Of a DNA stretch of 64,000 nt, positions 6,281 to 22,560 are shown in pieces. Made by a program: the position numbers and the translations under genes. The number at the start of each line of letters is the position of its first letter. Position 1 is the stretch's first letter. The stretch is taken from the NCBI RefSeq assembly GCF_988243305.1, contig NZ_OZ547136.1. One strand, given 5' to 3'. Under the pieces are notes generated by a model. It was given only the letters and a program-made list of their open reading frames with translations, was not told where the DNA came from and ran no database searches.

Positions 6281-6324
6281 GCCTTGCCTGATGCGACGCT
6301 CACGCGTCTTATCAGGCCTACAAG
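6281..6324. repeat. REP (repetitive extragenic palindromic) element between cysI and cysH
   Basis: gccttgcctgatgcgacgctcacgcgtcttatcaggcctacaag: classic REP imperfect palindrome. Confidence 0.6.
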
Positions 6325-9849: not shown

Positions 9850-10164
9850 GCGTCGTTATGTTCCAGTAAGCAAAGCTGTTTCTGCGCCCTGTCAGCGCCC
9901 ATAAAACAGAAGAGAAGGTAAGGTTAACGGGGTGAACGGTGTGGATTAAAGACGGGATAGCGATAACTAATAACCAAATCGACTAACCTGTTTTAGCAAT
10001 AGTCTTTAACAACAAAATAGATTAACCAACCCAATGAAAAACAAATGAATTTAGCCAATCATTAAGATAAATCAGCGATTTTGCGCAACAAAGTCGTTTT
10101 AGATAATGCGAAAAAACAGCCTTTCCGGTACTCTACGGCGGTTTTATCGTCCTGTAGAGAAATT
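9850..10164. promoter_or_regulatory. cysJIH promoter / queD upstream region (CysB-regulated cysJ promoter expected here)
   Basis: Intergenic, AT-rich, immediately upstream of cysJ on the minus strand and queD on the plus strand; specific CysB sites not resolved by eye. Confidence 0.4.
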
Positions 10165-10530
10165 ATGATGTCCACCACGTTATTTAAAGATTTCACCTTC
10201 GAAGCCGCTCACCGCTTACCACACGTCCCGGAAGGACATAAATGTGGTCGCCTGCACGGGCATTCCTTTATGGTGCGACTGGAAATTACCGGGGAAGTCG
10301 ATCCGCATACGGGCTGGATTATCGATTTCGCTGAACTGAAAGCGGCGTTTAAGCCAACTTATGAGCGCCTCGATCACCATTATCTCAATGATATTCCAGG
10401 TCTGGAAAACCCAACCAGCGAAGTTTTAGCAAAATGGATTTGGGATCAGGTTAAACCCGTTGTGCCGCTGTTAAGTGCGGTGATGGTAAAAGAAACCTGT
10501 ACTGCAGGCTGTATCTATCGCGGCGAATGA
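10165..10530 (+). CDS. queD: 6-carboxy-5,6,7,8-tetrahydropterin synthase (121 aa)
   Basis: Internal Met of ORF 10081..10530 gives [35 protein letters not shown]..., the PTPS/QueD Zn-binding motif; 121 aa. Confidence 0.9.
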
Positions 10531-10607
10531 TAAGAGTGTGTCGGCGGTCAATTTCCCTTAAGTAACGCTATGTTAGGGTGTTGTGTTCTGGATATCTGAG
10601 GCATGAC

Positions 10608-11879
10608 ATGGAAGACGACTGCGACATTATTATTATTGGTGCCGGTATTGCAGGCACCGCTTGCGCGTTACGCTGCGCGCGAGCGGGTTTATCCGTTTTG
10701 TTACTCGAACGCGCTGAAATCCCCGGCAGCAAAAATCTTTCCGGCGGGCGGTTATATACCCATGCACTCGCGGAACTCCTCCCGCAGTTTCACCTGACCG
10801 CGCCTCTTGAACGACGCATCACTCACGAAATCCTTTCCCTGTTAACGCCGGATGGCGCAACGACGTTTTCCAGCTTACAGCCCAGCGGTGAATCCTGGAG
10901 TGTATTACGTGCACGCTTCGATCCGTGGCTGGTTGCCGAAGCTGAAAAAGAAGGTGTCGAATGCATCCCTGGTGCGACGGTGGATGCGCTGTATGAAGAA
11001 AACGGCAGGGTGTGTGGTGTCATTTGTGGTGACGATATTCTCCGCGCCCGTTATGTGGTGCTGGCAGAAGGTGCCAACAGCGTCCTGGCTGAGCGTCACG
11101 GGTTAGTGACTCGTCCTGCTGGCGAAGCGATGGCGTTGGGGATCAAAGAAGTGCTGTCGCTGGAAACATCCGCTATTGAAGAACGTTTTCATCTGGAGAA
11201 TAACGAAGGCGCAGCGTTGCTGTTCAGCGGCGGGATCTGTGATGACTTACCCGGCGGCGCATTTCTTTATACTAATCAACAAACGCTCTCGTTAGGGATT
11301 GTTTGCCCGCTCTCTTCACTTACGCAAAGTCGTGTTCCGGCAAGCGAGCTGCTGGCTCGCTTTAAAACGCATCCGGCAGTGCGCCCGCTTATCAAAAACA
11401 CGGAATCACTGGAGTATGGTGCGCATCTGGTGCCAGAAGGTGGCTTACACAGTATGCCGATGCAATACGCCGGTAACGGCTGGCTGCTGGTGGGCGATGC
11501 GTTGCGCAGTTGCGTCAATACCGGAATTTCCGTGCGCGGCATGGATATGGCGCTAACTGGCGCGCAGGCGGCGGCACAAACGCTGATAAGCGCCTGCCAG
11601 CACCGCGAGCCGCAAAATCTGTTTGCGCTTTATCATCACAACGTCGAGCGCAGCCTGCTATGGGATGTTCTACAACGTTATCAGCATGTTCCGGCGCTTT
11701 TGCAACGCCCTGGATGGTACCGTGCGTGGCCTGCGTTAATGCAGGATATTTCCCGCGATTTATGGGATCAGGGTGATAAACCTGTTCCACCGCTGCGCCA
11801 GTTATTCTGGCGTCATTTACGTCGTCACGGCCTGTGGCATCTGGCGGGCGATGTTATCAGGAGTCTGCGATGTCTGTAG
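10608..11879 (+). CDS. ygcN: FAD-dependent oxidoreductase, FixC/ETF-quinone oxidoreductase-like (423 aa)
   Basis: N-terminal dinucleotide-binding fold DIIIIGAGIAGTACALRCARAGLSVLLLER; start taken at MEDDCD. Confidence 0.85.
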   Translation: MEDDCDIIIIGAGIAGTACALRCARAGLSVLLLERAEIPGSKNLSGGRLYTHALAELLPQFHLTAPLERRITHEILSLLTPDGATTFSSLQPSGESWSVLRARFDPWLVAEAEKEGVECIPGATVDALYEENGRVCGVICGDDILRARYVVLAEGANSVLAERHGLVTRPAGEAMALGIKEVLSLETSAIEERFHLENNEGAALLFSGGICDDLPGGAFLYTNQQTLSLGIVCPLSSLTQSRVPASELLARFKTHPAVRPLIKNTESLEYGAHLVPEGGLHSMPMQYAGNGWLLVGDALRSCVNTGISVRGMDMALTGAQAAAQTLISACQHREPQNLFALYHHNVERSLLWDVLQRYQHVPALLQRPGWYRAWPALMQDISRDLWDQGDKPVPPLRQLFWRHLRRHGLWHLAGDVIRSLRCL

Positions 11880-12130
11880 CCCGTAATCTCTGGCGCGTTG
11901 CCGATGCGCCGCACATTGTTCCGGCTGACTCCGTTGAGCGTCAGACGGTACAACGGTTGATTAACGCTTGTCCGGCTGGTCTTTTTTCGCTCACACCGGA
12001 AGGTGACTTACGCGTTGATTATCGCGGCTGCCTGGAGTGTGGCACCTGCCGTTTGCTGTGCGACGAATCAACACTACAACAGTGGCGCTATCCGCCTTCC
12101 GGATTCGGCATCACCTACCGTTTTGGATAA
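11870..12130 (+). CDS. ygcO: Ferredoxin-like protein, FixX-like (86 aa)
   Basis: Short ORF overlapping ygcN stop, with a cysteine cluster (CLECGTCRLLCDE); start taken at MSVARN. Confidence 0.8.
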   Translation: MSVARNLWRVADAPHIVPADSVERQTVQRLINACPAGLFSLTPEGDLRVDYRGCLECGTCRLLCDESTLQQWRYPPSGFGITYRFG

Positions 12131-12146
12131 ATAATAAGGATAATTT

Positions 12147-12722
12147 ATGCCCCTCTTACACCTGCTCCGCCAGAATCCGGTGATTGCTGCCGTTAAAGAT
12201 AATGCCAGCCTGCAACTGGCAATCGACTCTGAATGCCAGTTTATTTCCGTGTTGTACGGCAATATCTGCACCATCAGTAATATCGTTAAAAAGATTAAGA
12301 ACGCCGGAAAATATGCTTTTATTCATGTTGATTTGCTGGAAGGCGCGTCAAATAAAGAAGTGGTGATTCAGTTTTTGAAACTGGTGACTGAGGCGGACGG
12401 CATTATCAGTACCAAAGCCTCAATGCTGAAAGCAGCAAGAGCGGAAGGTTTTTTCTGTATTCATCGCCTGTTTATTGTTGATTCAATTTCGTTTCACAAC
12501 ATTGATAAGCAAGTTGCGCAATCGAATCCGGATTGTATTGAGATCCTGCCTGGCTGTATGCCCAAAGTGCTGGGCTGGGTGACGGAGAAAATCCGCCAAC
12601 CGCTGATTGCTGGCGGGCTGGTGTGCGATGAAGAAGATGCGCGTAATGCGATTAACGCAGGTGTCGTGGCGCTTTCCACCACGAATACCGGGGTCTGGAC
12701 GCTAGCGAAAAAATTGCTTTGA
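12147..12722 (+). CDS. ygcP: GlpP-like glycerol-3-phosphate-responsive antiterminator family protein (191 aa)
   Basis: 191 aa ORF starting MPLLHLLRQNPVIAAVKDN; family assignment by recalled similarity. Confidence 0.8.
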   Translation: MPLLHLLRQNPVIAAVKDNASLQLAIDSECQFISVLYGNICTISNIVKKIKNAGKYAFIHVDLLEGASNKEVVIQFLKLVTEADGIISTKASMLKAARAEGFFCIHRLFIVDSISFHNIDKQVAQSNPDCIEILPGCMPKVLGWVTEKIRQPLIAGGLVCDEEDARNAINAGVVALSTTNTGVWTLAKKLL

Positions 12723-12757
12723 CGGGATAATCGTAACGAATTGAATTTGTGTGATTT

Positions 12758-12870
12758 GTAGGCTGCACGCCACATCCGACATTCAGCGTCTGATGCGACG
12801 CTTGACGCGTCTTATCAGGCCTACAAGTCCCCAGGCCAGAACCGTAGGCAGGATCATCCGGCTGCACGTT
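12758..12870. repeat. Cluster of REP elements (BIME-like) between convergent ygcP and ygcQ
   Basis: Several REP units: gtaggctgcacgccacatccgacatt, tgatgcgacgcttgacgcgtcttatcaggcctacaag, gtaggcaggatcatccggctgcacgtt. Confidence 0.55.
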
Positions 12871-13729
12871 ATTGGCAATCTGCGTGAATGTTTGTCACCA
12901 GTGCCTCCAGCACCACTTTCCAGTCATCAACCACGCCAACATCTGCCTGTGAAAATACCGCTGCACTGGCGTCATGATTAATCGCCACCACAAACTTGCT
13001 ATTGCGTACGCCCGCCATTAACGCTGCTGCGCCGGAAGCGCCAACAACAATACACACCTCAGGTGCCAGCAGATGTCCAGAAATACCAATCACTTTTTCG
13101 GCATCAACGCCACCGTTCATCACTCGTGCCCGACTGTAGCCCACTTCGGCTCCCAGCTTTTCTGCCAGCATAGCGATTTCCTGGTTATCTGCCTCTCCGC
13201 CCTGCCCCACCACCAGCACCCGTCTGGCCTCAGCTAATGGGTCGCGGGTAACATTTTTCAGGTTTTCTATGCTAACCAGCCAGTCGGGAAGCGCACCTGG
13301 GACAATTTTCAGTTGCTGCATACCAGAGGGCAACGTGGCGTTTTTCGCTGCTCCCGCCTGACGCGCCAGGGAAAGGCATAGCGGGCGTTTTTCTGTTTGC
13401 AGCGTCGCCGTTAGCGCATTTCCCCAGTGGGATTTGCGCACGCTTACGGTTGAAATATCTAACGAAGTCACCTGGCAGATGCTTGCACCATGTAAACGCC
13501 AGGCCAGCCGGGTCGACAGTTCATCACCAAACGTTCCCGGCGGAAAGAGAACAACGTCCGCTGGCGTTCGCTGCCACTGTTCCACCAGCGCATCCAGCAC
13601 CTGTTCCGCCACTACGGGCTGAGGTTCAATCTGCCAGTGTGCCAGGGTACAACCGCTGAAATCCTGTTCTGCCAGCCAGCTCGCTATTGCGGCATTCTCC
13701 TGATTTATTGTCACAATTGCGAGATTCAT
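12869..13729 (-). CDS. ygcQ: Electron transfer flavoprotein alpha subunit, FixB-like (286 aa)
   Basis: ETF-alpha C-terminal FAD-binding region; start at MNLAIVTINQ gives an ATGA overlap with the ygcR stop. Confidence 0.85.
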   Translation of the reverse strand: MNLAIVTINQENAAIASWLAEQDFSGCTLAHWQIEPQPVVAEQVLDALVEQWQRTPADVVLFPPGTFGDELSTRLAWRLHGASICQVTSLDISTVSVRKSHWGNALTATLQTEKRPLCLSLARQAGAAKNATLPSGMQQLKIVPGALPDWLVSIENLKNVTRDPLAEARRVLVVGQGGEADNQEIAMLAEKLGAEVGYSRARVMNGGVDAEKVIGISGHLLAPEVCIVVGASGAAALMAGVRNSKFVVAINHDASAAVFSQADVGVVDDWKVVLEALVTNIHADCQ

Positions 13730-14505
13730 GGCTGCATCCTTTGGCGTAAATAGTCCTGCCATAGCTTTTGCGCTTTTTCTGCTACCGTTTGCCCATCAAT
13801 CAGCGTCGCTCCGCGTTGTTGCTCTGCTCTTGCCAGTTGCCGACACTGCATCGCTGGCGATTCGGCAGCAACAGTTTTACGGATAATTTCTGCTTTCCCC
13901 GCCGCCATTCGCTGACGCATTCCCGGTACTGGCAAGGCCACTTCACCGCACTGACGCACGGCAATCACCGCAGGCAAGCGAACCCGGCAACAGCGCAGCC
14001 CGTTTTCAGTACGCTGTTCAAGGGTGATAAACGGCGCGTCGAGAGTAAAACGCTCCACCTGGGTGAAGCAGGGCCAGCCCAGCATTTCCGCCAGCAAAAA
14101 TGGCGTTTGCCCATTCTGCCCTTCGCTGCTTTGGCAGCCGGTAATTATCAGATCCAGCGGATTCTGGTACTGCCATTCGGCAATATGGCGAGCGACAAAT
14201 TCCGGCGCAAAGCGCAGATCTGCCGCCGTCTCCAGCAATACAGCTTCCTCAAACCCATGAGCCATGAGATAGCGCAGCCAGTGCAACGCCCGTTCATCCC
14301 CCATGCTCAACGCGGTTAAAGACATCGACGTACCGTTTTTTCTCTGCGTCAACAGCAGCGCGGCGGCAGCCTGTTCATCAGCACCGAGTAAACTTCGCAG
14401 AAGCGAAACATCCGGTCCGCTATTACCCTGAGCCGCCGCCTGCCACTCTTTTTCCGCCAGCATTCCGGCATCCGGTTCGGCTTTAAACGCTAACAGAATG
14501 TTCAT
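13726..14505 (-). CDS. ygcR: Electron transfer flavoprotein beta subunit, FixA-like (259 aa)
   Basis: Start taken at MNILLAFKAEPDAG; ETF-beta-like. Confidence 0.85.
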   Translation of the reverse strand: MNILLAFKAEPDAGMLAEKEWQAAAQGNSGPDVSLLRSLLGADEQAAAALLLTQRKNGTSMSLTALSMGDERALHWLRYLMAHGFEEAVLLETAADLRFAPEFVARHIAEWQYQNPLDLIITGCQSSEGQNGQTPFLLAEMLGWPCFTQVERFTLDAPFITLEQRTENGLRCCRVRLPAVIAVRQCGEVALPVPGMRQRMAAGKAEIIRKTVAAESPAMQCRQLARAEQQRGATLIDGQTVAEKAQKLWQDYLRQRMQP

Positions 14506-15820
14506 TCGCACCTCCAACATTTCCCGCCGCCACCAGCGGGAGTGCTTTGGTTTCTGGTGCCCATAGCCAGGTCACGACAAAACCAACCAACAACACAGCC
14601 GCCAGGAGCAATAAGGTGACTTGCATTCCCCACTGCGCCAGCACCCACGGCAGCAGGCCAGTACTTACTGCCGCGCCCAACCGACTCATGGCGGTGGCAA
14701 AACCGACGCCCAGCGAGCGAATGTCAGTAGGAAAACTTTCCGCAGGCAAAATGCCCACCAGATTACTGACTGCCGAAATGGTGGTGCTGAAGAGAACAAA
14801 AAGCAGCAGCGTTAATGAACTGCCGGAAGGCAAACAAGCCATCACTACCAGCGTTGCCGCCAGCAGCAAAAAACTTCCCAGCAAAAATTTGCGATGTGCC
14901 AGCAGGTGCGTCAGAACTAATCCCAGCAGCGCACCCACAATTAACAACGCATTAAGCATCAGGCTAGCGGTCAACGCATCTTCCAGACCAATAGTCTGGG
15001 CGATAGTTGGCAGCCAGGTATAAATCACAAACCATGGGATTACGAGGCAGACAAAGAAGACGCTGTTAAACGCCGTGCGCCGCCAGTAGCGCGAAGAGAA
15101 CAAGGTTTTGATGTGTTTATGGGTCGCCGTTGCCACTTCATCGCCCAGTAAAACATGGGGACCAAAATAGCGATGCACGATAGCGTGAGCTTCTGCAAAA
15201 CGCCCCTGGCGCAGTAGCCAGCGTGGCGATTCTGGCGTTCCCCAGCGTAATAACGTAATCAACAATGCGGGCAGAGCTGCCGATGCCAGCAGCCAGCGCC
15301 AGGCCTCCGGGCTTTCGCTAATAAAGTGATATCCGGCAATACTTGCCAGCACATAGCCTACGGTCCACACCACGCTGAATGCGCCCAGCAAAATACCGCG
15401 ATGGCGGCGCGGAGAAAATTCAGCCAGCAAGGTGTGGCCTACTGAGTAATCGCCTCCCAGACCAATGCCGATCAAAATGCGCAGTCCAATAAGATGCTCT
15501 GGCGTGGTGGCAAAAAATTGTAAGAACGAAGCGAGCGTAATCAGCAAAAAGCTGAAGGTGAAGATTTTTTGCCGACCAATATGGTCGGAGATCCACCCCA
15601 AAACCAGGCTACCGATAAACAGGCCAAGTAGCGCCGAGCCGCCAATCATTCCCGCCATAAACGGCGTCAGTTGCATGGCGGGTGTAAGCTGAATAATGGC
15701 GTAACCAATGACGCCGAGAACATAACCGTCGGTCAGGTGCGCCCCGAAAGTGAGCGCAGCAATTCGACAGTGAAAACGGTTAAGCGGTAAATCATCCATT
15801 CGCACCGGTGAAGTGTTCAT
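14483..15820 (-). CDS. ygcS: MFS sugar-porter family transporter (445 aa)
   Basis: Multiple hydrophobic helices, sugar porter motifs (GRQKIF, PESPRWL); start taken at MNTSPVRMDD. Confidence 0.85.
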   Translation of the reverse strand: MNTSPVRMDDLPLNRFHCRIAALTFGAHLTDGYVLGVIGYAIIQLTPAMQLTPFMAGMIGGSALLGLFIGSLVLGWISDHIGRQKIFTFSFLLITLASFLQFFATTPEHLIGLRILIGIGLGGDYSVGHTLLAEFSPRRHRGILLGAFSVVWTVGYVLASIAGYHFISESPEAWRWLLASAALPALLITLLRWGTPESPRWLLRQGRFAEAHAIVHRYFGPHVLLGDEVATATHKHIKTLFSSRYWRRTAFNSVFFVCLVIPWFVIYTWLPTIAQTIGLEDALTASLMLNALLIVGALLGLVLTHLLAHRKFLLGSFLLLAATLVVMACLPSGSSLTLLLFVLFSTTISAVSNLVGILPAESFPTDIRSLGVGFATAMSRLGAAVSTGLLPWVLAQWGMQVTLLLLAAVLLVGFVVTWLWAPETKALPLVAAGNVGGANEHSVSV

Positions 15821-15913
15821 CTTTACCCCTTCATTGTCCGGTAATAAGAACGGCTTCTCGCCTGAGAAGCCGAAAAGGCAACGCTCCGTCATCGCGGAAC
15901 GCTGCCTGACACA

Positions 15914-17368
15914 TTATTTTTCAATCGGATAGATAGTACCCGTATTCATAATGCCGTTAGGATCGAACTGCTTTTTCAGCCCTTCCAGCAACGCCCACGC
16001 GCTGCCGTGTTCCAGCTTGCTCCAGTGAACGCGATGTTTACCAATACCGTGGTGGTGCACCATCGAACCGCCGAGGCGAATGGTTTCTTCGCAGATGATT
16101 TTGTTGAGCGGATTGTGGTACTTGTCGATTTCCTCTTCCGGCTTACAGTCAACAACGTTGTAGTCGTAAACGAAGTACATGTTGGTGCCGTTCTGGTAGC
16201 TGTGAGAGGAGTGACCGCCCAGCATGGTGATGTCGTCGGCGTGCGGGAACTCGGTACGAATACGGTTAATAACGCTTTCGTAGATTTCGTGAATGCAGCT
16301 CCAGCAGCCGGACACTTCGGTGGTAAAGCCCATGTTGCCGGTTTTGAGGATCTGCACACGTTCGGCAGCTACTTTATCCGGTCCCCAGTTCAGGTTGTTA
16401 AACCAGGTTTCGATCAGCTTGCTGTCCACTCGCTGGCATTGCGGGTAACGTGCCACGATTTCAGCAATCCCTTCGCCCGTCGCCTTCGCAATGCGAGGGT
16501 TACCTTCAGCCATAAAGATCAGCACGCATTTTCCGTCAGCAAAATGGGTGAAGTGTTGGGTGCCATCTTCAGCGTCATACAAACGAGCGATCGACGGACG
16601 ATACCCTTCCACCATGATTTCACGCAGGATGTTGAAGCCGGTTTTCATGTCTTCCAGGATATAGCCGTAGAAGAGGTTGTTTTCCGGGATGAACTTAAAG
16701 ATTTTCACAGTTACTTCAGTGATATAGCACAATGCACCTTCGTTGCCGATGATGATGTGACGAATGTCCGGGCCTGCCGCGCGGCGTGGTACGTTTTTAA
16801 TGCGTGTTACGGTGCCATCAGCCAATACTGCTTCCAGACCAACGACCATATCTTCGATTGCGCCGTAGAGTGTGGAGAACTGCCCGATACTGCGGGTTGC
16901 TACCAGGCCGCCCATCTGCGCCAGCGGCTTTGACTGCGGAGAATGCCCCGTGGTGTAACCTTTTTCACGCAACGCGTTTTCCAGCACTTCCAGCGGAACT
17001 CCGCATTGCGCCGTGGCCTGCATATTCTCAATATCAATATTAATGATTTGATTCATGGCAGAGCCGTCGAGCACCACCGAGTTTTCCACAACGGTTTCCA
17101 GCCCACCTTCGGTAGCGGAAGCACCGGTACGCGGCACACCGTTAATTTTGTGCGCATTCATAAAATTCAGCACACGGGATACTTGTTCTGTGGAACCGAG
17201 TTTTACGACCGCTGCCGGAATCGGCAAAGTATAAATGCCATGAATATCCGGAAATTTGCGAAAACGGTCAATACTGTTCTTCTTTAATACTGTTTCATCG
17301 GTAATTACGCGATCTGCACCAACAATTTCCTTTAGCTGGTCGACAATCGCTGCGCGAGATAAAGACAT
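15914..17368 (-). CDS. ygcU: FAD-linked oxidase (484 aa)
   Basis: 484 aa ORF with FAD-binding PCMH-type domain features. Confidence 0.88.
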   Translation of the reverse strand: MSLSRAAIVDQLKEIVGADRVITDETVLKKNSIDRFRKFPDIHGIYTLPIPAAVVKLGSTEQVSRVLNFMNAHKINGVPRTGASATEGGLETVVENSVVLDGSAMNQIINIDIENMQATAQCGVPLEVLENALREKGYTTGHSPQSKPLAQMGGLVATRSIGQFSTLYGAIEDMVVGLEAVLADGTVTRIKNVPRRAAGPDIRHIIIGNEGALCYITEVTVKIFKFIPENNLFYGYILEDMKTGFNILREIMVEGYRPSIARLYDAEDGTQHFTHFADGKCVLIFMAEGNPRIAKATGEGIAEIVARYPQCQRVDSKLIETWFNNLNWGPDKVAAERVQILKTGNMGFTTEVSGCWSCIHEIYESVINRIRTEFPHADDITMLGGHSSHSYQNGTNMYFVYDYNVVDCKPEEEIDKYHNPLNKIICEETIRLGGSMVHHHGIGKHRVHWSKLEHGSAWALLEGLKKQFDPNGIMNTGTIYPIEK

Positions 17369-17437
17369 AGTAATTCCTTCCTGATAATAAAAATGGAATA
17401 ATCATTAATAAGAGAAAACAGAAACCACCGTTATGGA

Positions 17438-18223
17438 TTAGCGCACTAAATAACCGCCATCAACCACTAATAAATGTCCGTTGACATAATTCGATGCCGG
17501 ACTTGCGAGGAATACGGCTGCGCCCATTAAATCCTGAGTATCGCCCCAACGGTTTGCCGGAATATGATCAAGAACGCGCTGGTTAGTTTCTGGATTACTA
17601 CGGGTCGCCAGAGTGATATCGGTAGCGTAATATCCCGGAGCAATACCATTTACCTGAATATTATATTGACCTAGTTCATCACAATAAGCTTTGGTGAACC
17701 CGGCAAGAGCATGTTTAGTGGCAGAATATGCAGGTGACCATTGTCCACCTAAGTAAGAGAATAATGAACAGATATTAATGATTTTACCGCTTTTCTGCGG
17801 GATCATAATTTTTGCAGCTTCATAGCTTAACTCGAATGCGGCGGTCAGGTTCACATCAATCATCGGGTCCCAGTCGGCACGACCGAAGTCCAGCACCTTA
17901 TTCAGCTTACAAATACCGGCATTGTTAATCAGAATATCGACGGTACCGAAACGTTCGCAACAGGCGGCGATTATCTTCTGCGGCGCGCCTTCTGCGGTGA
18001 TATCCACCTGCATGAAGTCCACCTCAACACCCTGTTTTTCAATCATTTCCTTTGTTTCGCCGTTATCTTTAACGAAGCTTGGAATAAAGATATTTGCGCC
18101 TGCTTTGGCCAGCGCCATGGCAAATGCCTGGCCTAAACCGCTATTCCCGCCGGTAACAATTGCGGTTTTACCTTTCAGGGAGAAAAAATCCATTGAGAAC
18201 GCATTGAGAGATTCGATTGACAT
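17438..18223 (-). CDS. ygcW: Short-chain dehydrogenase/reductase, KduD-like (261 aa)
   Basis: Rossmann motif TGGNSGLG and catalytic YSATK visible; start taken at MSIESLNAF. Confidence 0.85.
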   Translation of the reverse strand: MSIESLNAFSMDFFSLKGKTAIVTGGNSGLGQAFAMALAKAGANIFIPSFVKDNGETKEMIEKQGVEVDFMQVDITAEGAPQKIIAACCERFGTVDILINNAGICKLNKVLDFGRADWDPMIDVNLTAAFELSYEAAKIMIPQKSGKIINICSLFSYLGGQWSPAYSATKHALAGFTKAYCDELGQYNIQVNGIAPGYYATDITLATRSNPETNQRVLDHIPANRWGDTQDLMGAAVFLASPASNYVNGHLLVVDGGYLVR

Positions 18224-18541
18224 AGTTAGCTCCAATTTCCGTAAGGCAAAAAAAAAGAAAGGTAACTTCCCCCGCGAGAGGGAAGTTACCTTTCTCATTA
18301 TCTCTGGTAACTGGAGATAATTTTTATCATAAGGGCATAATCGCTAATGTGATCGTAATCACAGTGTGATATTCGAATTGTCAAATAATTTTAAAAAGCA
18401 GAAGCGTGATTACTCTCACACAACACCACTACTTTCCATGTTATTTCTTATTGCAATTACTAGAGACCTGAGAAAAGTAATCCACCTGAAAGGGCGGCTT
18501 ACTTTTCTCTTTTTTTTGTCTATTACAAATGGGAATACGAT

Positions 18542-19819
18542 ATGCAACACAACTCATATCGCCGTTGGATAACCCTCGCGATAATTAGTTTTAGCGGCGG
18601 CGTTAGTTTCGACCTGGCTTATTTACGTTATATTTATCAAATTCCCATGGCGAAATTTATGGGATTCAGCAATACCGAGATAGGTTTAATAATGAGTACC
18701 TTTGGTATTGCGGCTATTATTCTTTATGCCCCCAGCGGCGTTATTGCCGATAAATTTTCACACCGCAAAATGATTACTTCCGCGATGATCATTACCGGAT
18801 TACTGGGTCTGTTAATGGCAACATATCCACCGCTGTGGGTAATGCTCTGTATTCAGGTCGCCTTTGCGATAACGACGATTTTAATGCTGTGGTCGGTGTC
18901 GATTAAAGCCGCCTCGTTGCTGGGCGATCATAGCGAGCAAGGGAAAATTATGGGCTGGATGGAAGGGCTGCGCGGCGTCGGTGTAATGTCGCTGGCGGTG
19001 TTTACCATGTGGGTCTTTTCTCGCTTTGCACCGGATGACAGCGCCAGCCTGAAAACGGTCATTATTATCTATAGTGTGGTTTACATTCTGCTGGGCATTT
19101 TGTGTTGGTTTTTTGTTAGCGATAACAACAACCTGCGCAATACCAATAACGAAGAAAAACAGTCATTCCAGCTTAGCGACATCCTGGCTGTTTTGCGCAT
19201 CAGCACCACCTGGTATTGCAGCATGGTGATTTTTGGTGTCTTCACCATCTACGCCATTCTGAGTTACTCCACCAACTATCTGACCGAAATGTACGGCATG
19301 TCGCTGGTGGCGGCGAGCTACATGGGGATTGTGATCAACAAAATCTTCCGCGCACTGTGCGGCCCACTTGGTGGCATTATCACCACCTACAGCAAAGTGA
19401 AATCCCCTACCCGCGTGATCCAAATCCTTTCCGTACTCGGCTTGCTGGCGTTAACTGCCCTGCTCGTCACGAACTCTAACCCGCAATCGGTCGCGATGGG
19501 GATTGGCCTGATTTTACTGCTGGGATTCACCTGTTACGCCTCACGCGGGCTGTACTGGGCCTGCCCTGGCGAAGCGAGAACACCGTCTTACATTATGGGC
19601 ACCACGGTAGGTATTTGTTCGGTGATTGGATTCCTGCCGGATGTCTTCGTTTACCCGATTATCGGCTACTGGCAAGACACCCTGCCCGCTGCAGAAGCCT
19701 ACCGCAATATGTGGCTGATGGGCATGGCGGCGCTTGCCATGGTGATCGTCTTTACCTTTTTGCTGTTCCAAAAAATTCGTACTGCTGATAGCGCCCCTGC
19801 TATGGCTAGCAGCAAGTAA
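18542..19819 (+). CDS. yqcE: MFS transporter (425 aa)
   Basis: 425 aa strongly hydrophobic multi-helix ORF. Confidence 0.85.
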   Translation: MQHNSYRRWITLAIISFSGGVSFDLAYLRYIYQIPMAKFMGFSNTEIGLIMSTFGIAAIILYAPSGVIADKFSHRKMITSAMIITGLLGLLMATYPPLWVMLCIQVAFAITTILMLWSVSIKAASLLGDHSEQGKIMGWMEGLRGVGVMSLAVFTMWVFSRFAPDDSASLKTVIIIYSVVYILLGILCWFFVSDNNNLRNTNNEEKQSFQLSDILAVLRISTTWYCSMVIFGVFTIYAILSYSTNYLTEMYGMSLVAASYMGIVINKIFRALCGPLGGIITTYSKVKSPTRVIQILSVLGLLALTALLVTNSNPQSVAMGIGLILLLGFTCYASRGLYWACPGEARTPSYIMGTTVGICSVIGFLPDVFVYPIIGYWQDTLPAAEAYRNMWLMGMAALAMVIVFTFLLFQKIRTADSAPAMASSK

Positions 19820-19845
19820 GTCCAGAAAATTACAGGAGAAAAATC

Positions 19846-21324
19846 ATGTCGAAAAAATACATCATAGGGATTGATGGCGGAAGTCAGAGCACAAAAGTGG
19901 TGATGTATGATCTGGAAGGTAATGTGGTTTGCGAAGGCAAAGGCTTATTGCAGCCGATGCACACGCCAGATGCCGATACCGCAGAACATCCTGACGACGA
20001 TTTATGGGCATCATTATGTTTTGCCGGTCACGATTTGATGAGTCAGTTTGCCGGGAATAAAGAAGATATTGTCGGTATTGGTCTGGGATCCATCCGTTGC
20101 TGCCGTGCGTTATTGAAAGCCGATGGCACGCCAGCTGCGCCGTTGATTAGCTGGCAGGATGCACGCGTTACACGCCCTTACGAACATACGAATCCTGACG
20201 TGGCATATGTCACCTCTTTTTCAGGTTATCTGACGCATCGCTTAACCGGCGAGTTTAAAGACAATATCGCCAACTATTTTGGTCAGTGGCCGGTGGATTA
20301 TAAGACCTGGGCATGGAGTGAAGATGCCGCAGTCATGGAGAAGTTTAATATCCCCCGTCATATGCTGTTTGATGTGCAAATGCCGGGCACTGTTCTTGGG
20401 CATATCACTCCTCAAGCCGCGCTGGCGACACATTTCCCAGCTGGGCTGCCGGTTGTTTGTACCACCAGTGATAAACCGGTAGAAGCACTGGGAGCCGGGT
20501 TACTGGATGATGAAACTGCGGTAATTTCTCTTGGCACTTACATCGCGTTGATGATGAACGGCAAAGCACTGCCGAAAGATCCGGTGGCGTACTGGCCGAT
20601 TATGTCTTCTATTCCGCAAACATTGCTGTATGAAGGTTACGGTATTCGCAAAGGCATGTGGACGGTGAGCTGGCTACGCGACATGTTAGGCGAGTCGTTA
20701 ATTCAGGATGCCAAAGCACAGGATCTTTCACCGGAAGATTTGCTCAACAAAAAAGCGTCTTGTGTGCCGCCAGGCTGTAATGGTCTGATGACGGTGCTGG
20801 ACTGGCTGACCAATCCGTGGGAACCGTACAAACGCGGGATTATGATTGGCTTTGATTCCAGCATGGATTACGCATGGATATATCGTTCGATACTGGAAAG
20901 CGTGGCGCTGACGCTGAAGAACAATTACGACAATATGTGTAATGAAATGAATCACTTTGCAAAGCATGTGATCATTACTGGCGGCGGTTCGAACAGCGAT
21001 CTGTTTATGCAGATTTTTGCCGACGTGTTCAACCTTCCGGCACGCCGTAACGCCATTAATGGTTGTGCAAGCCTGGGGGCAGCGATTAATACGGCGGTAG
21101 GTCTGGGGCTATACCCGGATTACGCAACGGCTGTCGACAAAATGGTTCGCGTGAAAGATATCTTTATGCCTGTTGAGAACAATGCCAAACGCTACGACGC
21201 GATGAATAAAGGCATTTTCAAGGAGTTAACCAAACATACTGATGTAATCCTGAAAAAATCGTATGAAGTGATGCATGGGGAATTGGGGAATGCGGATTCG
21301 ATCCAGAGCTGGTCGAATGCGTAA
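19846..21324 (+). CDS. ygcE: FGGY-family carbohydrate kinase (492 aa)
   Basis: N-terminal IGIDGGSQSTKVVMYD actin-fold kinase motif. Confidence 0.9.
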   Translation: MSKKYIIGIDGGSQSTKVVMYDLEGNVVCEGKGLLQPMHTPDADTAEHPDDDLWASLCFAGHDLMSQFAGNKEDIVGIGLGSIRCCRALLKADGTPAAPLISWQDARVTRPYEHTNPDVAYVTSFSGYLTHRLTGEFKDNIANYFGQWPVDYKTWAWSEDAAVMEKFNIPRHMLFDVQMPGTVLGHITPQAALATHFPAGLPVVCTTSDKPVEALGAGLLDDETAVISLGTYIALMMNGKALPKDPVAYWPIMSSIPQTLLYEGYGIRKGMWTVSWLRDMLGESLIQDAKAQDLSPEDLLNKKASCVPPGCNGLMTVLDWLTNPWEPYKRGIMIGFDSSMDYAWIYRSILESVALTLKNNYDNMCNEMNHFAKHVIITGGGSNSDLFMQIFADVFNLPARRNAINGCASLGAAINTAVGLGLYPDYATAVDKMVRVKDIFMPVENNAKRYDAMNKGIFKELTKHTDVILKKSYEVMHGELGNADSIQSWSNA

Positions 21325-21370
21325 GTGAGGAAGGCCGGGCGGGAAACTGCCCGGCCTGAACATACCTGAA

Positions 21371-21508
21371 TGGTTATCCCCGCTGACGTGGGGAACATAA
21401 GTTCGACAACTTAAAAAATGATAACAAGTCCGGTTTATCCCCGCTGATGCAGGGAACATAATAAAAACTTTAACTAGTTCGGTTTATCCCTGTTGTTACA
21501 AGGAATAT
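21371..21508 (-). CRISPR. Degenerate CRISPR remnant: 3 decayed type I-E repeats with 32-bp and 20-bp spacers
   Basis: Plus-strand repeats tggttatccccgctgacgtggggaacat (21371-21398), cggtttatccccgctgatgcagggaacat (21431-21459), cggtttatccctgttgttacaaggaatat (21480-21508). Confidence 0.6.
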
Positions 21509-21962
21509 TAACTACACTCGATGTCCTTAGAATAAAAGACAACGCAAACCGTACTTTATCAATTTTCATTTAAAGTATGAACTGGATATCTTTATTCATA
21601 AGAACTATTCATCAACAGCCTATAGAGACGGTTATGTAAAACCACTCATTAGCCTCAAAACAAAGACAAATTTCCAGATTTATTACTTAATCAATGAATA
21701 ATAAGCTTAAAAAACAATCTATTATCCTAAAGAAAAAATTAACAAACATCAATTCAATATTAAAAAAATAATATATGATAATTTCTTAATGATTTAAGTA
21801 TCATACAACTAACACTTTAATTAAATTTGATTTTTTGTATCGATAATTGTGAACTTATCATATATGGAGAGCTATTTTGAACATGAGGTGTTACGTGGAT
21901 ATATTGCTTAATACGAGTACTGCTAATATAAAAACTTGAGAAAGAGATAACGGGTTATATGG

Positions 21963-22418
21963 TGGTTTATCCCCGCTGGCGCGGGGAACTCCGTCAGTGT
22001 GCCAGTTGCTACTGTTTCCCATACGGTTTATCCCCGCTGACGCGGGGAACTCATCAGTGATATCCAACATTGCGGAGCTAAACGCGGTTTATCCCCGCTG
22101 GCGCGGGGAACTCTATAAATGTGCCATATACGGCGTTTGTTGCCTCGGTTTATCCCCGCTGGCGCGGGGAACTCCTCCCGGTGATGCGGGTTATGTGGCC
22201 TGCCGCCGGTTTATCCCCGCTGGCGCGGGGAACTCTTCGCCGCGTCAACAATTCGGACCTGTAAATCCGGTTTATCCCCGCTGGCGCGGGGAACTCATCC
22301 GGCGAACGCGCTACAGAGTACAGTTCACCGGTTTATCCCCGCTGGCGCGGGGAACTCGGAAACCGCCCCGGCGGTGGTTAGCTGTTTGCCGGTTTATCCC
22401 CGCTGGCGCGGGGAACTC
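21963..22418 (-). CRISPR. Type I-E CRISPR array, 8 repeats (29 bp) and 7 spacers (32 bp each)
   Basis: Plus-strand repeat cggtttatccccgctggcgcggggaactc at 21963, 22024, 22085, 22146, 22207, 22268, 22329, 22390; reverse complement is the canonical E. coli repeat, so crRNA is from the minus strand. Repeat at 21963 starts with t, repeat at 22024 has gctgAcgc. Confidence 0.95.
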
Positions 22419-22560
22419 TCTAAACATAACCTATTATTAATTAATAATTTTTTAAGCCAGTCACAATCTACCAACTTTATAGTATCACACAAACAACACA
22501 TCCATTATGTTAAAGAGCACTTAATCCATTGATTGAAAAGCTAAATATTTAAAGTAATCC
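22419..22560 (-). promoter_or_regulatory. Putative CRISPR leader (AT-rich) adjacent to the newest repeat
   Basis: AT-rich sequence tctaaacataacctattattaattaataattttttaagcc... upstream of the first repeat in the direction of transcription; degenerate repeats lie at the opposite end. Confidence 0.5.

Follow-up and report, generated by a model that had tools for sequence, protein, structure and literature searches.

The ygc locus of Escherichia coli as a candidate inducible catabolic cassette: a conserved leader RNA, a GlpP-family protein and a putative quaternary-ammonium substrate

Introduction

What do the genes ygcNOP, ygcQRSUW and yqcE–ygcE of Escherichia coli do, and which of them belong to one system? 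In the 64,000-nucleotide (nt) stretch of contig NZ_OZ547136.1 (RefSeq assembly GCF_988243305.1) that was analysed here, referred to below as the window, they occupy positions 10608–21324, and all ten open reading frames (ORFs) are intact. The best-matching record carries a RefSeq annotation of the locus, at 99.5% identity to the window region, with the same gene order as the window: queD, ygcN ygcO ygcP, ygcQ ygcR ygcS ygcU ygcW, yqcE ygcE, CRISPR and queE. No functional study of the cluster was found in the literature, where full-text matches are confined to genome-wide screens, and a 2026 paper still names ygcU merely 'FAD-binding oxidoreductase'. None of the ten proteins (0/10) reaches the NCBIfam equivalog cutoff of a characterised family. 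An initial annotation of this DNA had described the region as an uncharacterised catabolic island built around a FixABCX-like electron-transfer module and had proposed a polyol or sugar acid as the substrate; the literature bears out 'uncharacterised', and Pfam agrees with the domain family assigned to each of the ten genes.

The gene cluster itself is known and annotated. What is new is the leader RNA with its alternative structures and, as its partner in Gram-negative bacteria, a GlpP-family protein, as well as a cross-phylum cassette with core and accessory parts, a predicted substrate class and a predicted chemistry for YgcU. The whole model, to which we give a little more credence than doubt, is that of an inducible catabolic cassette in which a transporter, YgcE, YgcW and YgcU process a quaternary-ammonium substrate under the control of CRP and of antitermination by YgcP. 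Since ygc is among the larger E. coli gene blocks still without a function, it is of use that the analysis offers a candidate RNA target for YgcP, a minimal enzyme set of YgcE, YgcW and YgcU, and concrete predictions, namely hydroxylated trimethylammonium compounds as the substrate class and dihydroxyacetone phosphate (DHAP) as the product.

A conserved leader RNA with two alternative structures

Both divergent operons of the locus begin with a version of one RNA element. The ygcW leader lies at 18247–18315 on the minus strand, with an upstream helix P1 formed by 18306–18312 and 18284–18290, a terminator stem at 18255–18296 and a U-tract at 18247–18254; the yqcE leader lies at 18452–18517 on the plus strand, with P1 formed by 18456–18461 and 18476–18481, terminator arms at 18470–18480 and 18499–18509 and a U-tract at 18510–18517. 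Each leader, about 65 nt long, contains an intrinsic-terminator-like hairpin followed by 8–9 U residues just 5' of the ribosome-binding site, and the two share the pattern 5'-(C)AGUUACUAGAG-N3-5-GAGAAAAGUAACUUCC-loop-GGAAG-N-GCUUUUCUC-U7-9. A terminator scan returned a 19-bp stem with a T-run for the ygcW leader, the 97-nt form of which has a minimum free energy of -42.3 kcal/mol (z -6.1), and the corresponding value for the yqcE leader is -27.3 kcal/mol (z -4.2).

A pattern scan of the 84 related loci that were fetched gave approximately 115 leader copies, and 68 distinct copies were aligned (alignment A2) and used to build a covariance model (R1). Within these 68 copies the outer stem of the terminator is 99.1% paired, with compensatory double changes in four of eight pairs, and for P1 (AGUUACY with RGUAACU) the paired share is 94.7%, four of its seven pairs carrying compensatory changes. 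For both helices, none of 500 column shuffles reached the observed percentage of paired cells, the number of double-changed cells or the covariation score, and the pairing signal was lost in slid-register controls in which the partners were shifted by 1–3 columns. P1 and the terminator share nucleotides, and an A-to-G change in alignment column 30 is accompanied by U-to-C changes in columns 10 and 64, its two alternative partners, as predicted for two mutually exclusive helices. In line with this alternation, RNAalifold yields the terminator when it is given full-length leaders and P1 when the leaders are truncated ahead of the 3' arm. In the two window leaders P1 alone amounts to -6.7 and -1.4 kcal/mol, compared with -31.0 and -20.7 kcal/mol for the terminators; P1 is thus weak, so that termination should be the default and a factor should be needed to hold P1.

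In the 64-kb window the covariance model recovers two copies and no more, the ygcW leader at 74.7 bits (E 2e-13) and the yqcE leader at 70.2 bits (E 1.9e-12), and neither the sequence nor the model yields a leader 5' of ygcN. No Rfam 15 family matches the leaders in a scan of positions 10000–22000 with E values up to 1, in which only chance-level hits were returned (rliE at 0.89, and naRNA4 at 0.32 on a palindromic repeat described below). By blastn, the yqcE leader is present once per genome, unannotated, in 5,063 of 5,426 E. coli genomes, in 4,967 of which it is at least 99% identical, and the leader recurs from the Enterobacterales to the Bacillota, Desulfobacterota and Actinomycetota.

An extra leader copy was observed inside the operon, between ygcE and ygcU, in Geosporobacter and in two metagenome-assembled genomes (MAGs) of Clostridia (L063, 9849–9911; L064, 9827–9912; L068, 8714–8797), where it is a second checkpoint after the kinase gene. 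A metagenome scan with the leader pattern mostly matched E. coli itself. Marine phage-like contigs with many small ORFs (L086, L096, L099, L114, L115, L128, L148, L149 and L157; for example L128, 9677–9720) carry ATTACTAGAGGGCACGAGAAAAGTAAT with a T-run, resembling the 5' half of the leader; this look-alike was rejected because the covariance model misses it at E 1e-5, and it is probably a chance resemblance within one phage lineage seen across samples.

The divergent control region and YgcP

The spacer between ygcW and yqcE is 318 bp long and holds CRP-type sites in addition to the two leader terminators. A near-perfect CRP site, tgtgatcgtaatcaca, at 18348–18363 overlaps the -35 element of the ygcW promoter, the -10 element of which, TATGAT, ends at 18326 according to the promoter scan, and CRP has been detected on it by chromatin immunoprecipitation in enterotoxigenic E. 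coli, where the site, given as TGTGATTACGATCACA, is assigned to ygcW/yqcE (PMC4287617). A second CRP-like site, cgtgattactctcaca, at 18405–18420 precedes the yqcE promoter and is kept as gtgagaataatcacg in other Enterobacteriaceae; judged from its sequence it is probably bound by CRP, and yqcE–ygcE has been classed as Crp-activated (PMC8085971).

The candidate for the factor that holds P1 is the product of ygcP (12147–12722, plus strand). Residues 12–184 of YgcP cover positions 1–173 of the 173-position Pfam profile G3P_antiterm (PF04309; E 1.4e-62), that is, its full length, and its relatives of solved structure are Listeria GlpP (PDB 3kts, 1.2e-27) and 1vkf. Across 83 loci, the leader and ygcP occur together in 53, ygcP alone in two, the leader alone in eight and neither in 20; one of the two ygcP-only loci was a miss of the regular expression and was recovered by the covariance model, and the leader-only loci are mostly on cut contigs. 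The lineages without ygcP (Desulfobacterales, SAR324 and Alkalihalobacillus) are also without the leader and carry GntR or sigma-54-type regulators instead. In Bacillus subtilis, GlpP with bound glycerol-3-phosphate (G3P) disrupts terminators in the 5' untranslated regions (5'-UTRs) of glpD, glpFK and glpTQ (PMC9604022). Because of this precedent, the shared protein family and the co-occurrence, YgcP loaded with the product of YgcE is expected to stabilize P1, so that both operons are read through; the contact of YgcP with the RNA and the nature of its ligand are predicted here by analogy.

The likeness to the B. subtilis system extends to several further features: the regulated operons begin with a 5'-UTR intrinsic terminator, a kinase able to make a phosphorylated inducer is encoded, and catabolite control is layered on top, by CRP in ygc and by CcpA in B. 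subtilis (PMC9604022). However, the host of ygc is Gram-negative, the regulated genes are ygcWUSRQ and yqcE–ygcE rather than glpFK, glpD and glpTQ, the leader has a defined sequence, AGUUACUAGAG-N3-5-GAGAAAAGUAAC..., without an Rfam family match, and the ligand of YgcP is presumably not G3P itself. The GlpP-like regulator of the initial annotation therefore appears to act as an antiterminator on a conditional-terminator leader common to both divergent operons. The co-regulation that it had assumed for the whole cluster is predicted, through the shared leader, for two of the three transcription units, those of ygcW and yqcE, and ygcNOP stands apart without a leader. The leader can be described as a conserved, covarying, predicted protein-dependent antitermination element outside Rfam, with a GlpP-family partner in Gram-negative bacteria, that has moved between phyla with its regulator.

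Core and accessory parts of the cassette

Related loci were compared by ORF calling and blastp over 80 loci, with one genome per species. The genes ygcW, ygcU and ygcE occur together in nearly all of the 83 loci, usually with ygcP (50–61% identity), and ygcU is always adjacent to ygcW. The genes ygcR and ygcQ, which encode the subunits of an electron-transferring flavoprotein (ETF), follow ygcU in anaerobes and Enterobacteriaceae and are missing beside ygcU in Erwinia, Pantoea, Izhakiella and some Serratia, and in Halobacillus, Virgibacillus and Thalassobacillus; altogether, an ETF is missing beside ygcU at 11 of 46 Enterobacterales-like loci and at 10–13 of 37 other loci. The flanks of the ETF-less Enterobacterales versions are unrelated genes (LysR, DUF1254/DUF1214, GGDEF and moeAB), ygcN, ygcO and ygcS are confined to Enterobacterales loci, and neither an aldolase nor an isomerase was found in any cassette version compared. 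The conserved core is thus YgcW, YgcU, YgcE and YgcP, and the ETF pair and the FixCX-like pair are accessory. Since the core travels together, ETF-less versions exist and their flanks are unrelated, a transporter, the kinase, the short-chain dehydrogenase/reductase (SDR) and YgcU appear to be sufficient to reach central metabolism.

Two contigs in the comparison look like contamination or mis-binning: one labelled Planctomycetota MAG (L005) has a YgcU 100% identical to that of E. coli, and one labelled Chryseobacterium sp. 18061 (L028) has a complete Enterobacteriaceae-type ygc cluster with a YgcU that is 88% identical.

The enzymes YgcU, YgcW and YgcE

The gene ygcU (15914–17368, minus strand) encodes a 484-residue enzyme linked to flavin adenine dinucleotide (FAD) with the Pfam domains FAD_binding_4 and FAD-oxidase_C. 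Its best relative of solved structure is alkyl-DHAP synthase (AGPS; PDB 4bby and 2uuu), at 1.6e-39 when the sequence is used alone and 1.1e-55 when the family profile is used, followed by glycolate oxidase (4.2e-36) and LctD (1.1e-25). Residues Arg262, Tyr398 and His438–440 of YgcU are invariant and align with Arg419, Tyr578 and His-His-His615–617 of AGPS, the tyrosine column having been fixed by the Y578F entry 4bca; Trp322, Trp328, Trp356 and Tyr391 of YgcU are likewise invariant. The motif HHHG[IV]G is present in 80 of 82 YgcU orthologues, compared with none of 14 GlcD-like paralogues (termed X, an FAD oxidase encoded after EtfA in anaerobes). Across phyla YgcU is 65–76% identical, with 71–73% between E. 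coli and Sporomusa, Alkalihalobacillus, Desulfobacula and Photobacterium. In AGPS, the arginine, tyrosine and three histidines act on C1 of the DHAP moiety via a flavin N5 adduct, swapping the C1 substituent (the acyl group of acyl-DHAP gives way to a fatty alcohol), and the extra regions of AGPS form its lipid tunnel. YgcU has both FAD domains and the invariant catalytic columns in common with AGPS, but it is a cytosolic bacterial protein of 484 rather than 584–658 residues from which the N-terminal region is absent, and its residues 274–342 are not aligned to AGPS; it is therefore no orthologue of AGPS, and lipid binding is not expected of it. Its linkage to a kinase and an SDR, and in many cases also to an ETF, suggests the catabolism of a small polar DHAP derivative, possibly with net redox turnover. 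To our knowledge, AGPS-type flavin chemistry is known only from ether-lipid synthesis, and if it is true that YgcU removes the substituent at C1 of a DHAP derivative, such flavin chemistry would here be put to a new, catabolic use, which could bear on the turnover of betaine lipids and related osmolytes in the gut and the ocean.

The gene ygcW (17438–18223, minus strand; Pfam adh_short, 5.3e-53) encodes an SDR oxidoreductase near the KduD and gluconate-5-dehydrogenase types, which scores 350 bits against the NCBIfam KduD model with a cutoff of 369 and is 63–80% identical across phyla. The product of ygcE (19846–21324, plus strand) is an FGGY-family kinase with FGGY_N and FGGY_C domains that is 43–58% identical across phyla. 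YgcE reaches no NCBIfam specificity group (xylulokinase, 143 versus a cutoff of 380; LsrK, 141 versus 528; GlpK, 102 versus 590); among solved structures it is nearest to LsrK (1e-29) and to glycerol kinases, and in the alignment to GlpK the residues Arg83, Trp103 and the catalytic Asp245 are kept. The erythritol (EryA, EryB) and glycerol (GlpK, GlpD) routes follow the same logic, with an FGGY kinase and a subsequent flavin-dependent oxidation of the phosphorylated product that passes electrons to the respiratory chain. They differ from ygc in that the ygc flavoenzyme is of the VAO/AGPS rather than the GlpD/DAO type, in that isomerases are absent and the regulator is a predicted RNA-binding antiterminator, and in the transporter context of the cassette, which points to betaine-type substrates.

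The electron-transfer genes

The gene ygcN (10608–11879, plus strand) encodes a FixC-like FAD oxidoreductase with Pfam matches to DAO (6.6e-17) and to the ETF–quinone oxidoreductase (ETF-QO) quinone-binding domain ETFQO_UQ-bd (30.6 bits, cutoff 27.7), and it scores 368–384 bits against NCBIfam FixC-type subfamilies with cutoffs of 466–610. The start of ygcO (11870–12130, plus strand) overlaps the stop of ygcN by 10 nt, and its product is a FixX-like ferredoxin (Pfam Fer4; 84 bits against NCBIfam FixX, cutoff 166) with the cysteine pattern CP...CxxCxxCxxxC in its translation. On the minus strand, ygcQ (12869–13729) encodes an ETF alpha-type subunit (Pfam ETF_alpha, 1e-17; ratio of nonsynonymous to synonymous substitution rates, dN/dS, 0.13) and ygcR (13726–14505) an ETF beta-type subunit (Pfam ETF, 1.8e-16; dN/dS 0.18), the start of ygcQ overlapping the stop of ygcR by 4 nt; all NCBIfam equivalog scores of the two are under the cutoffs. 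The ETF/FixCX-like module that the initial annotation had placed at the centre is real, and the ETF genes share one closely spaced operon with ygcW and ygcU; the module is not the heart of the system, because ygcR/ygcQ and ygcN/ygcO are dispensable in many lineages.

In comparison with two other Escherichia loci (L007 and L006), the products of ygcQ and ygcR are 88–92% identical with dN/dS of 0.13–0.27, whereas those of ygcU and ygcW are 98–99% identical within Escherichia with dN/dS of 0.01–0.03, which amounts to a several-fold higher rate of evolution for the ETF genes. YgcQ of Citrobacter or Klebsiella is only approximately 56–63% identical to that of E. coli, compared with 93–94% for YgcU.

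E. coli FixABCX (encoded with caiTABCDE) and YdiQRST are paralogous four-gene sets of ETF beta, ETF alpha, FixC and FixX. The cai system handles a quaternary ammonium compound and has a BCCT carrier, and the other FixABCX-type sets of E. coli accompany anaerobic reductive pathways. The ygc set differs from them in that YgcN, YgcO, YgcQ and YgcR are all under the FixABCX equivalog cutoffs, in being split over two convergent operons and in being attached to a kinase/SDR/AGPS-like core rather than to acyl-CoA enzymes. In LctBCD of Acetobacterium woodii (PDB 7qh2) an FAD_binding_4 dehydrogenase is likewise encoded beside EtfB–EtfA; LctD is a detectable relative of YgcU (3.1e-22), and the order EtfB–EtfA–oxidase is reproduced in anaerobes by ygcR–ygcQ–X. 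However, the LctD-like partner is the extra paralogue X, with GlcD-type motifs, and not YgcU, with AGPS-type motifs, and E. coli has no X and carries the FixCX-like YgcNO instead.

Evidence on the substrate class

The genes that accompany the leader and the core in other phyla point to the type of compound handled. BCCT genes (1e-115 to 1e-134) are present in Sporomusa, Halobacillus, SAR324, Geosporobacter, Dethiosulfatibacter and Clostridia MAGs, and OpuAC-type ATP-binding cassette (ABC) systems are present in Virgibacillus and Bacillota MAGs; a BCCT or OpuAC gene occurs at 20 of 37 non-enterobacterial loci versus none of 46 enterobacterial loci. The leader stands directly 5' of BCCT genes (L003, L064 twice, L065 and L068 twice), of OpuAC ABC operons (L130 and L139) and of an operon of MttB, PanB-like and OpuAC genes (L073 and L123), so that these transporters are members of the regulon and not chance neighbours. 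Photobacterium has a BCCT gene and also, behind a leader, a YqcE homologue (58% identical). The closest solved relatives of the OpuC-type binding protein are ergothioneine, choline and carnitine binders, the closest relative of the MttB homologue is a glycine-betaine methyltransferase, Desulfobacula has a complete MttB/corrinoid/pterin methyltransferase set immediately upstream of ygcW–ygcU, and an actinomycete version (L072) has a BetI-type regulator. With such partners, a small compound of the glycerol or diol type with a trimethylammonium (betaine-type) group is the most likely substrate. Because YgcW and YgcU are highly similar across the versions, their core chemistry may be expected to be shared, and the substrate in E. 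coli is probably identical or closely related and may be zwitterionic.

In Alkalihalobacillus oceani (L002, 1932–11443) a seven-gene operon encodes an aspartase-like lyase, a betaine-aldehyde-dehydrogenase-like enzyme, a zinc-dependent alcohol dehydrogenase (ADH), a BCCT carrier, YgcW, YgcE and YgcU, and it is adjoined by a sigma-54 activator and an OpuAC-type protein, without ygcP and without the leader; its gene content suggests that a betaine alcohol, once released, is converted to fumarate and trimethylamine.

Two observations accompany the transporter genes. The leader-controlled transporter operon of a Bacillota MAG (L073, 6997–13948) and that of L123 also encode MttB-family methyltransferase, PanB-family and proline-racemase-family proteins. 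In Dethiosulfatibacter aminovorans (L065, 15681–17236) the second leader is followed by a BCCT gene in two pieces, ORFs of 378 and 137 residues, owing to a frameshift or a sequencing error.

Proposed pathway and its weighing

Starting from the observed gene content, the structure and covariation of the leader, the co-occurrence with ygcP, the membership of transporters in the regulon and the AGPS-type residues of YgcU, we infer in which order the enzymes act, what chemistry YgcU performs and what type of substrate is used in E. coli, as follows. CRP-dependent promoters in the 318-bp spacer would start both operons, and the transcripts would meet the leader terminator before the first start codon; YgcP with the phosphorylated intermediate of the pathway, in analogy to GlpP with G3P, would hold P1, so that the 5' arm of the terminator is sequestered and read-through follows. 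A substrate R-CH2-CHOH-CH2OH would be taken up by YqcE and/or YgcS in E. coli, both carriers of the major facilitator superfamily (MFS); in other phyla the importer would be a BCCT carrier or an OpuC-type ABC system. YgcE would phosphorylate the terminal CH2OH group, YgcW would oxidize the neighbouring secondary alcohol to a DHAP-like ketone phosphate, R-CH2-CO-CH2-OP, and YgcU would act at C1 to release DHAP, or a close derivative, and the substituent R. Reduced YgcU or the GlcD-like paralogue X may pass electrons to the ETF (YgcRQ) and on to YgcNO and quinone, the last in the Enterobacterales.

Several points weigh against this model. The E. coli cluster has MFS carriers and not BCCT or OpuC types, and its substrate could differ from that in other phyla. 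The AGPS alignment starts at residue ~158–180, YgcU being without ~160–180 N-terminal AGPS residues; the roles given to the AGPS-type residues apply to YgcU by analogy; and the AlphaFold2 model of YgcU, built from an 11-sequence alignment, is poor, with a predicted local distance difference test score (pLDDT) of 64.7. The substrate residues of YgcE are uninformative on specificity, Glu84 of GlpK being replaced by Cys, and both the action of YgcP on the ygcW and yqcE leaders and its ligand remain predictions by analogy. In anaerobes and Enterobacteriaceae, ygcU is directly followed by EtfB–EtfA, often with overlapping stop and start codons, and this tight linkage argues for a net redox reaction, with YgcU or X reoxidized by the ETF in some lineages, whereas AGPS chemistry is redox-neutral; the two lines of argument pull apart.

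A rival substrate is a plain polyol or sugar acid, the class named in the initial annotation, which would be taken up by MFS carriers, phosphorylated by YgcE and oxidized by YgcW and YgcU as dehydrogenases, with electrons passing from YgcRQ through YgcNO to quinone and with YgcP as an inducer-sensing antiterminator. Here the order ygcU–EtfB–EtfA would suit a dehydrogenase–ETF complex like LctBCD, the ETF-QO quinone-binding domain of YgcN would find its place, YgcW falls just under the KduD and gluconate-5-dehydrogenase cutoffs, and the carriers in E. coli are all MFS proteins of the sugar-porter and galactonate-transporter types. However, in at least five other lineages BCCT, OpuC-type and MttB genes belong to the regulons that hold the W–U–E–P cassette and its leader, and the 65–80% identity of YgcW and YgcU between E. 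coli and those versions argues for the same core chemistry; the active-site motifs of YgcU, the nearest relative of which is alkyl-DHAP synthase and not a polyol or sugar-acid oxidase, are AGPS-type and not GlcD-type, the ETF and FixCX parts are dispensable in many lineages, and no version has the aldolase or isomerase that a C4–C6 polyol route normally needs. The polyol or sugar acid is therefore probably the wrong class, and we regard such a pathway as unlikely, although it deserves to be kept in mind. The electron-transfer genes could also run in the opposite direction, in a reductive, respiration-like role similar to that of cai/fix, with YgcNO and YgcRQ feeding low-potential electrons to YgcU, which would reduce or cleave a quaternary-ammonium ketone phosphate anaerobically. 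YgcN and YgcO are indeed nearest to FixC and FixX, the anaerobic reductive service of the other E. coli FixABCX-type sets and the BCCT of the carnitine system are parallels, the ETF is found mainly in anaerobes and facultative anaerobes, and the quaternary-amine context fits. Aerobic Bacilli and Erwinia/Pantoea nevertheless keep W–U–E–P without a linked ETF, in strict anaerobes EtfB–EtfA precede a GlcD/LctD-like oxidase, an arrangement typical of oxidative (confurcating) lactate dehydrogenase modules, and activation by CRP is typical of catabolic carbon-source operons, which makes this role decidedly unlikely.

A different use of the invariably adjacent FAD_binding_4 enzyme and SDR would be a two-step epimerase like DprE1 (FAD) and DprE2 (SDR), in which YgcU would oxidize the phosphorylated substrate at a secondary alcohol and YgcW would reduce the ketone with the opposite stereochemistry, the product joining a pathway encoded elsewhere. 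This would explain a cluster without downstream enzymes, and the ETF would accept the electrons of the oxidative half-reaction; yet that reducing power would be dissipated for no gain, YgcU is nearest to AGPS with its catalytic residues, DprE1 not being among the solved-structure matches listed, and the quaternary-amine transport and methyltransferase context would be left unexplained, so that we consider the epimerase very unlikely. That the E. coli cluster is a cryptic or decaying remnant without present function would fit the literature searched, which yields neither a phenotype nor a function, and the faster change of the ETF genes. All ten genes are, however, under purifying selection, with dN/dS versus a divergent Escherichia of 0.01–0.05 for ygcW, ygcU, ygcE, ygcP, yqcE, ygcS and ygcN and 0.11–0.18 for ygcO, ygcQ and ygcR. 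By megablast the region is matched in 5,425 of 5,426 complete E. coli genomes and covered to at least 80% in 5,060 of them, and the cluster is 95–99% identical in most E. coli genomes. Together with the intact ORFs and the leader, at least 99% identical in 4,967 genomes, these figures led us to reject decay, which is extremely unlikely.

Within the quaternary-ammonium model, a more specific proposal can be made, although it is a quite unlikely one: the core would be a new route that cleaves glycerol-linked quaternary-ammonium head groups by reverse AGPS chemistry, with the YgcP–leader riboregulator having spread between phyla with the enzymes. The candidate substrate would be the glyceryl ether of homoserine betaine (or of hydroxymethyl-trimethyl-beta-alanine) from the deacylated betaine lipids diacylglyceryltrimethylhomoserine (DGTS) and diacylglycerylhydroxymethyltrimethyl-beta-alanine (DGTA). 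The kinase and the SDR would turn the glyceryl moiety into an alkyl-DHAP analogue, and YgcU working in reverse would give DHAP and the betaine alcohol; the latter would be degraded in Alkalihalobacillus by the aspartase-like lyase with the betaine-aldehyde-type dehydrogenase and the ADH, and in anaerobes by MttB methyltransferase systems or by the GlcD-like oxidase with the ETF. No published pathway for betaine-lipid head-group cleavage was found in the literature searched. Glycerophosphocholine was also considered as the substrate and ranked low by reasoning, since simple phosphodiesterases already cleave it.

Other features of the locus

The remaining genes encode the two MFS transporters. 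YgcS (14483–15820, minus strand; Pfam Sugar_tr, 6.9e-54) is of the sugar-porter or aromatic-acid symporter type, every NCBIfam subfamily match being under its cutoff, and YqcE (18542–19819, plus strand; MFS_1, 2.2e-26) is of the anion:cation symporter type and scores 67.9 bits against the D-galactonate-transporter subfamily of NCBIfam, the cutoff of which is 395. The term 'island' does not fit the region, which has a mosaic GC content of 43–56% and is located at the same queD–cysJI site in Citrobacter, Klebsiella and Enterobacter.

Repetitive extragenic palindromic (REP) elements, which had been reported between the units, are confirmed for the convergent ygcP/ygcQ spacer, whereas the ygcS/ygcU, ygcU/ygcW and ygcW/yqcE spacers hold none. 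The palindromes, of the type of REP and bacterial interspersed mosaic elements (BIMEs), lie at about 12758–12868, a stretch that includes ctgatgcgacgcttgacgcgtcttatcaggcctac; they are of the palindrome type GCCKGATGCGRCG...CGYCTTATCMGGCCTAC, with an inverted repeat at 12753–12763 and 12819–12829 and a weak match to the REP-derived naRNA4 at 12749–12821 (E 0.32). An exact copy of the REP consensus, GCCTGATGCGACGCTCACGCGTCTTATCAGGCCTAC, is located outside the locus at 6286–6321 in the cysH/cysI region.

A 9-bp GC-rich hairpin, CGGCTTCTC-AGGC-GAGAAGCCG, at 15851–15872 on the minus strand lies inside the operon in the ygcU–ygcS spacer and may act as an internal attenuator or in RNA stability. The yqcE–ygcE unit ends with a GC-rich hairpin without a U-run, ggccgggcgggaaactgcccggcc, at 21333–21356 on the plus strand, 3' of the ygcE stop codon. 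Further 3' of ygcE there are three degenerate CRISPR repeats (21366–21510) and an AT-rich stretch, followed by an intact CRISPR array at 21960–22420 with type I-E-like repeats, cggtttatccccgctggcgcggggaac.

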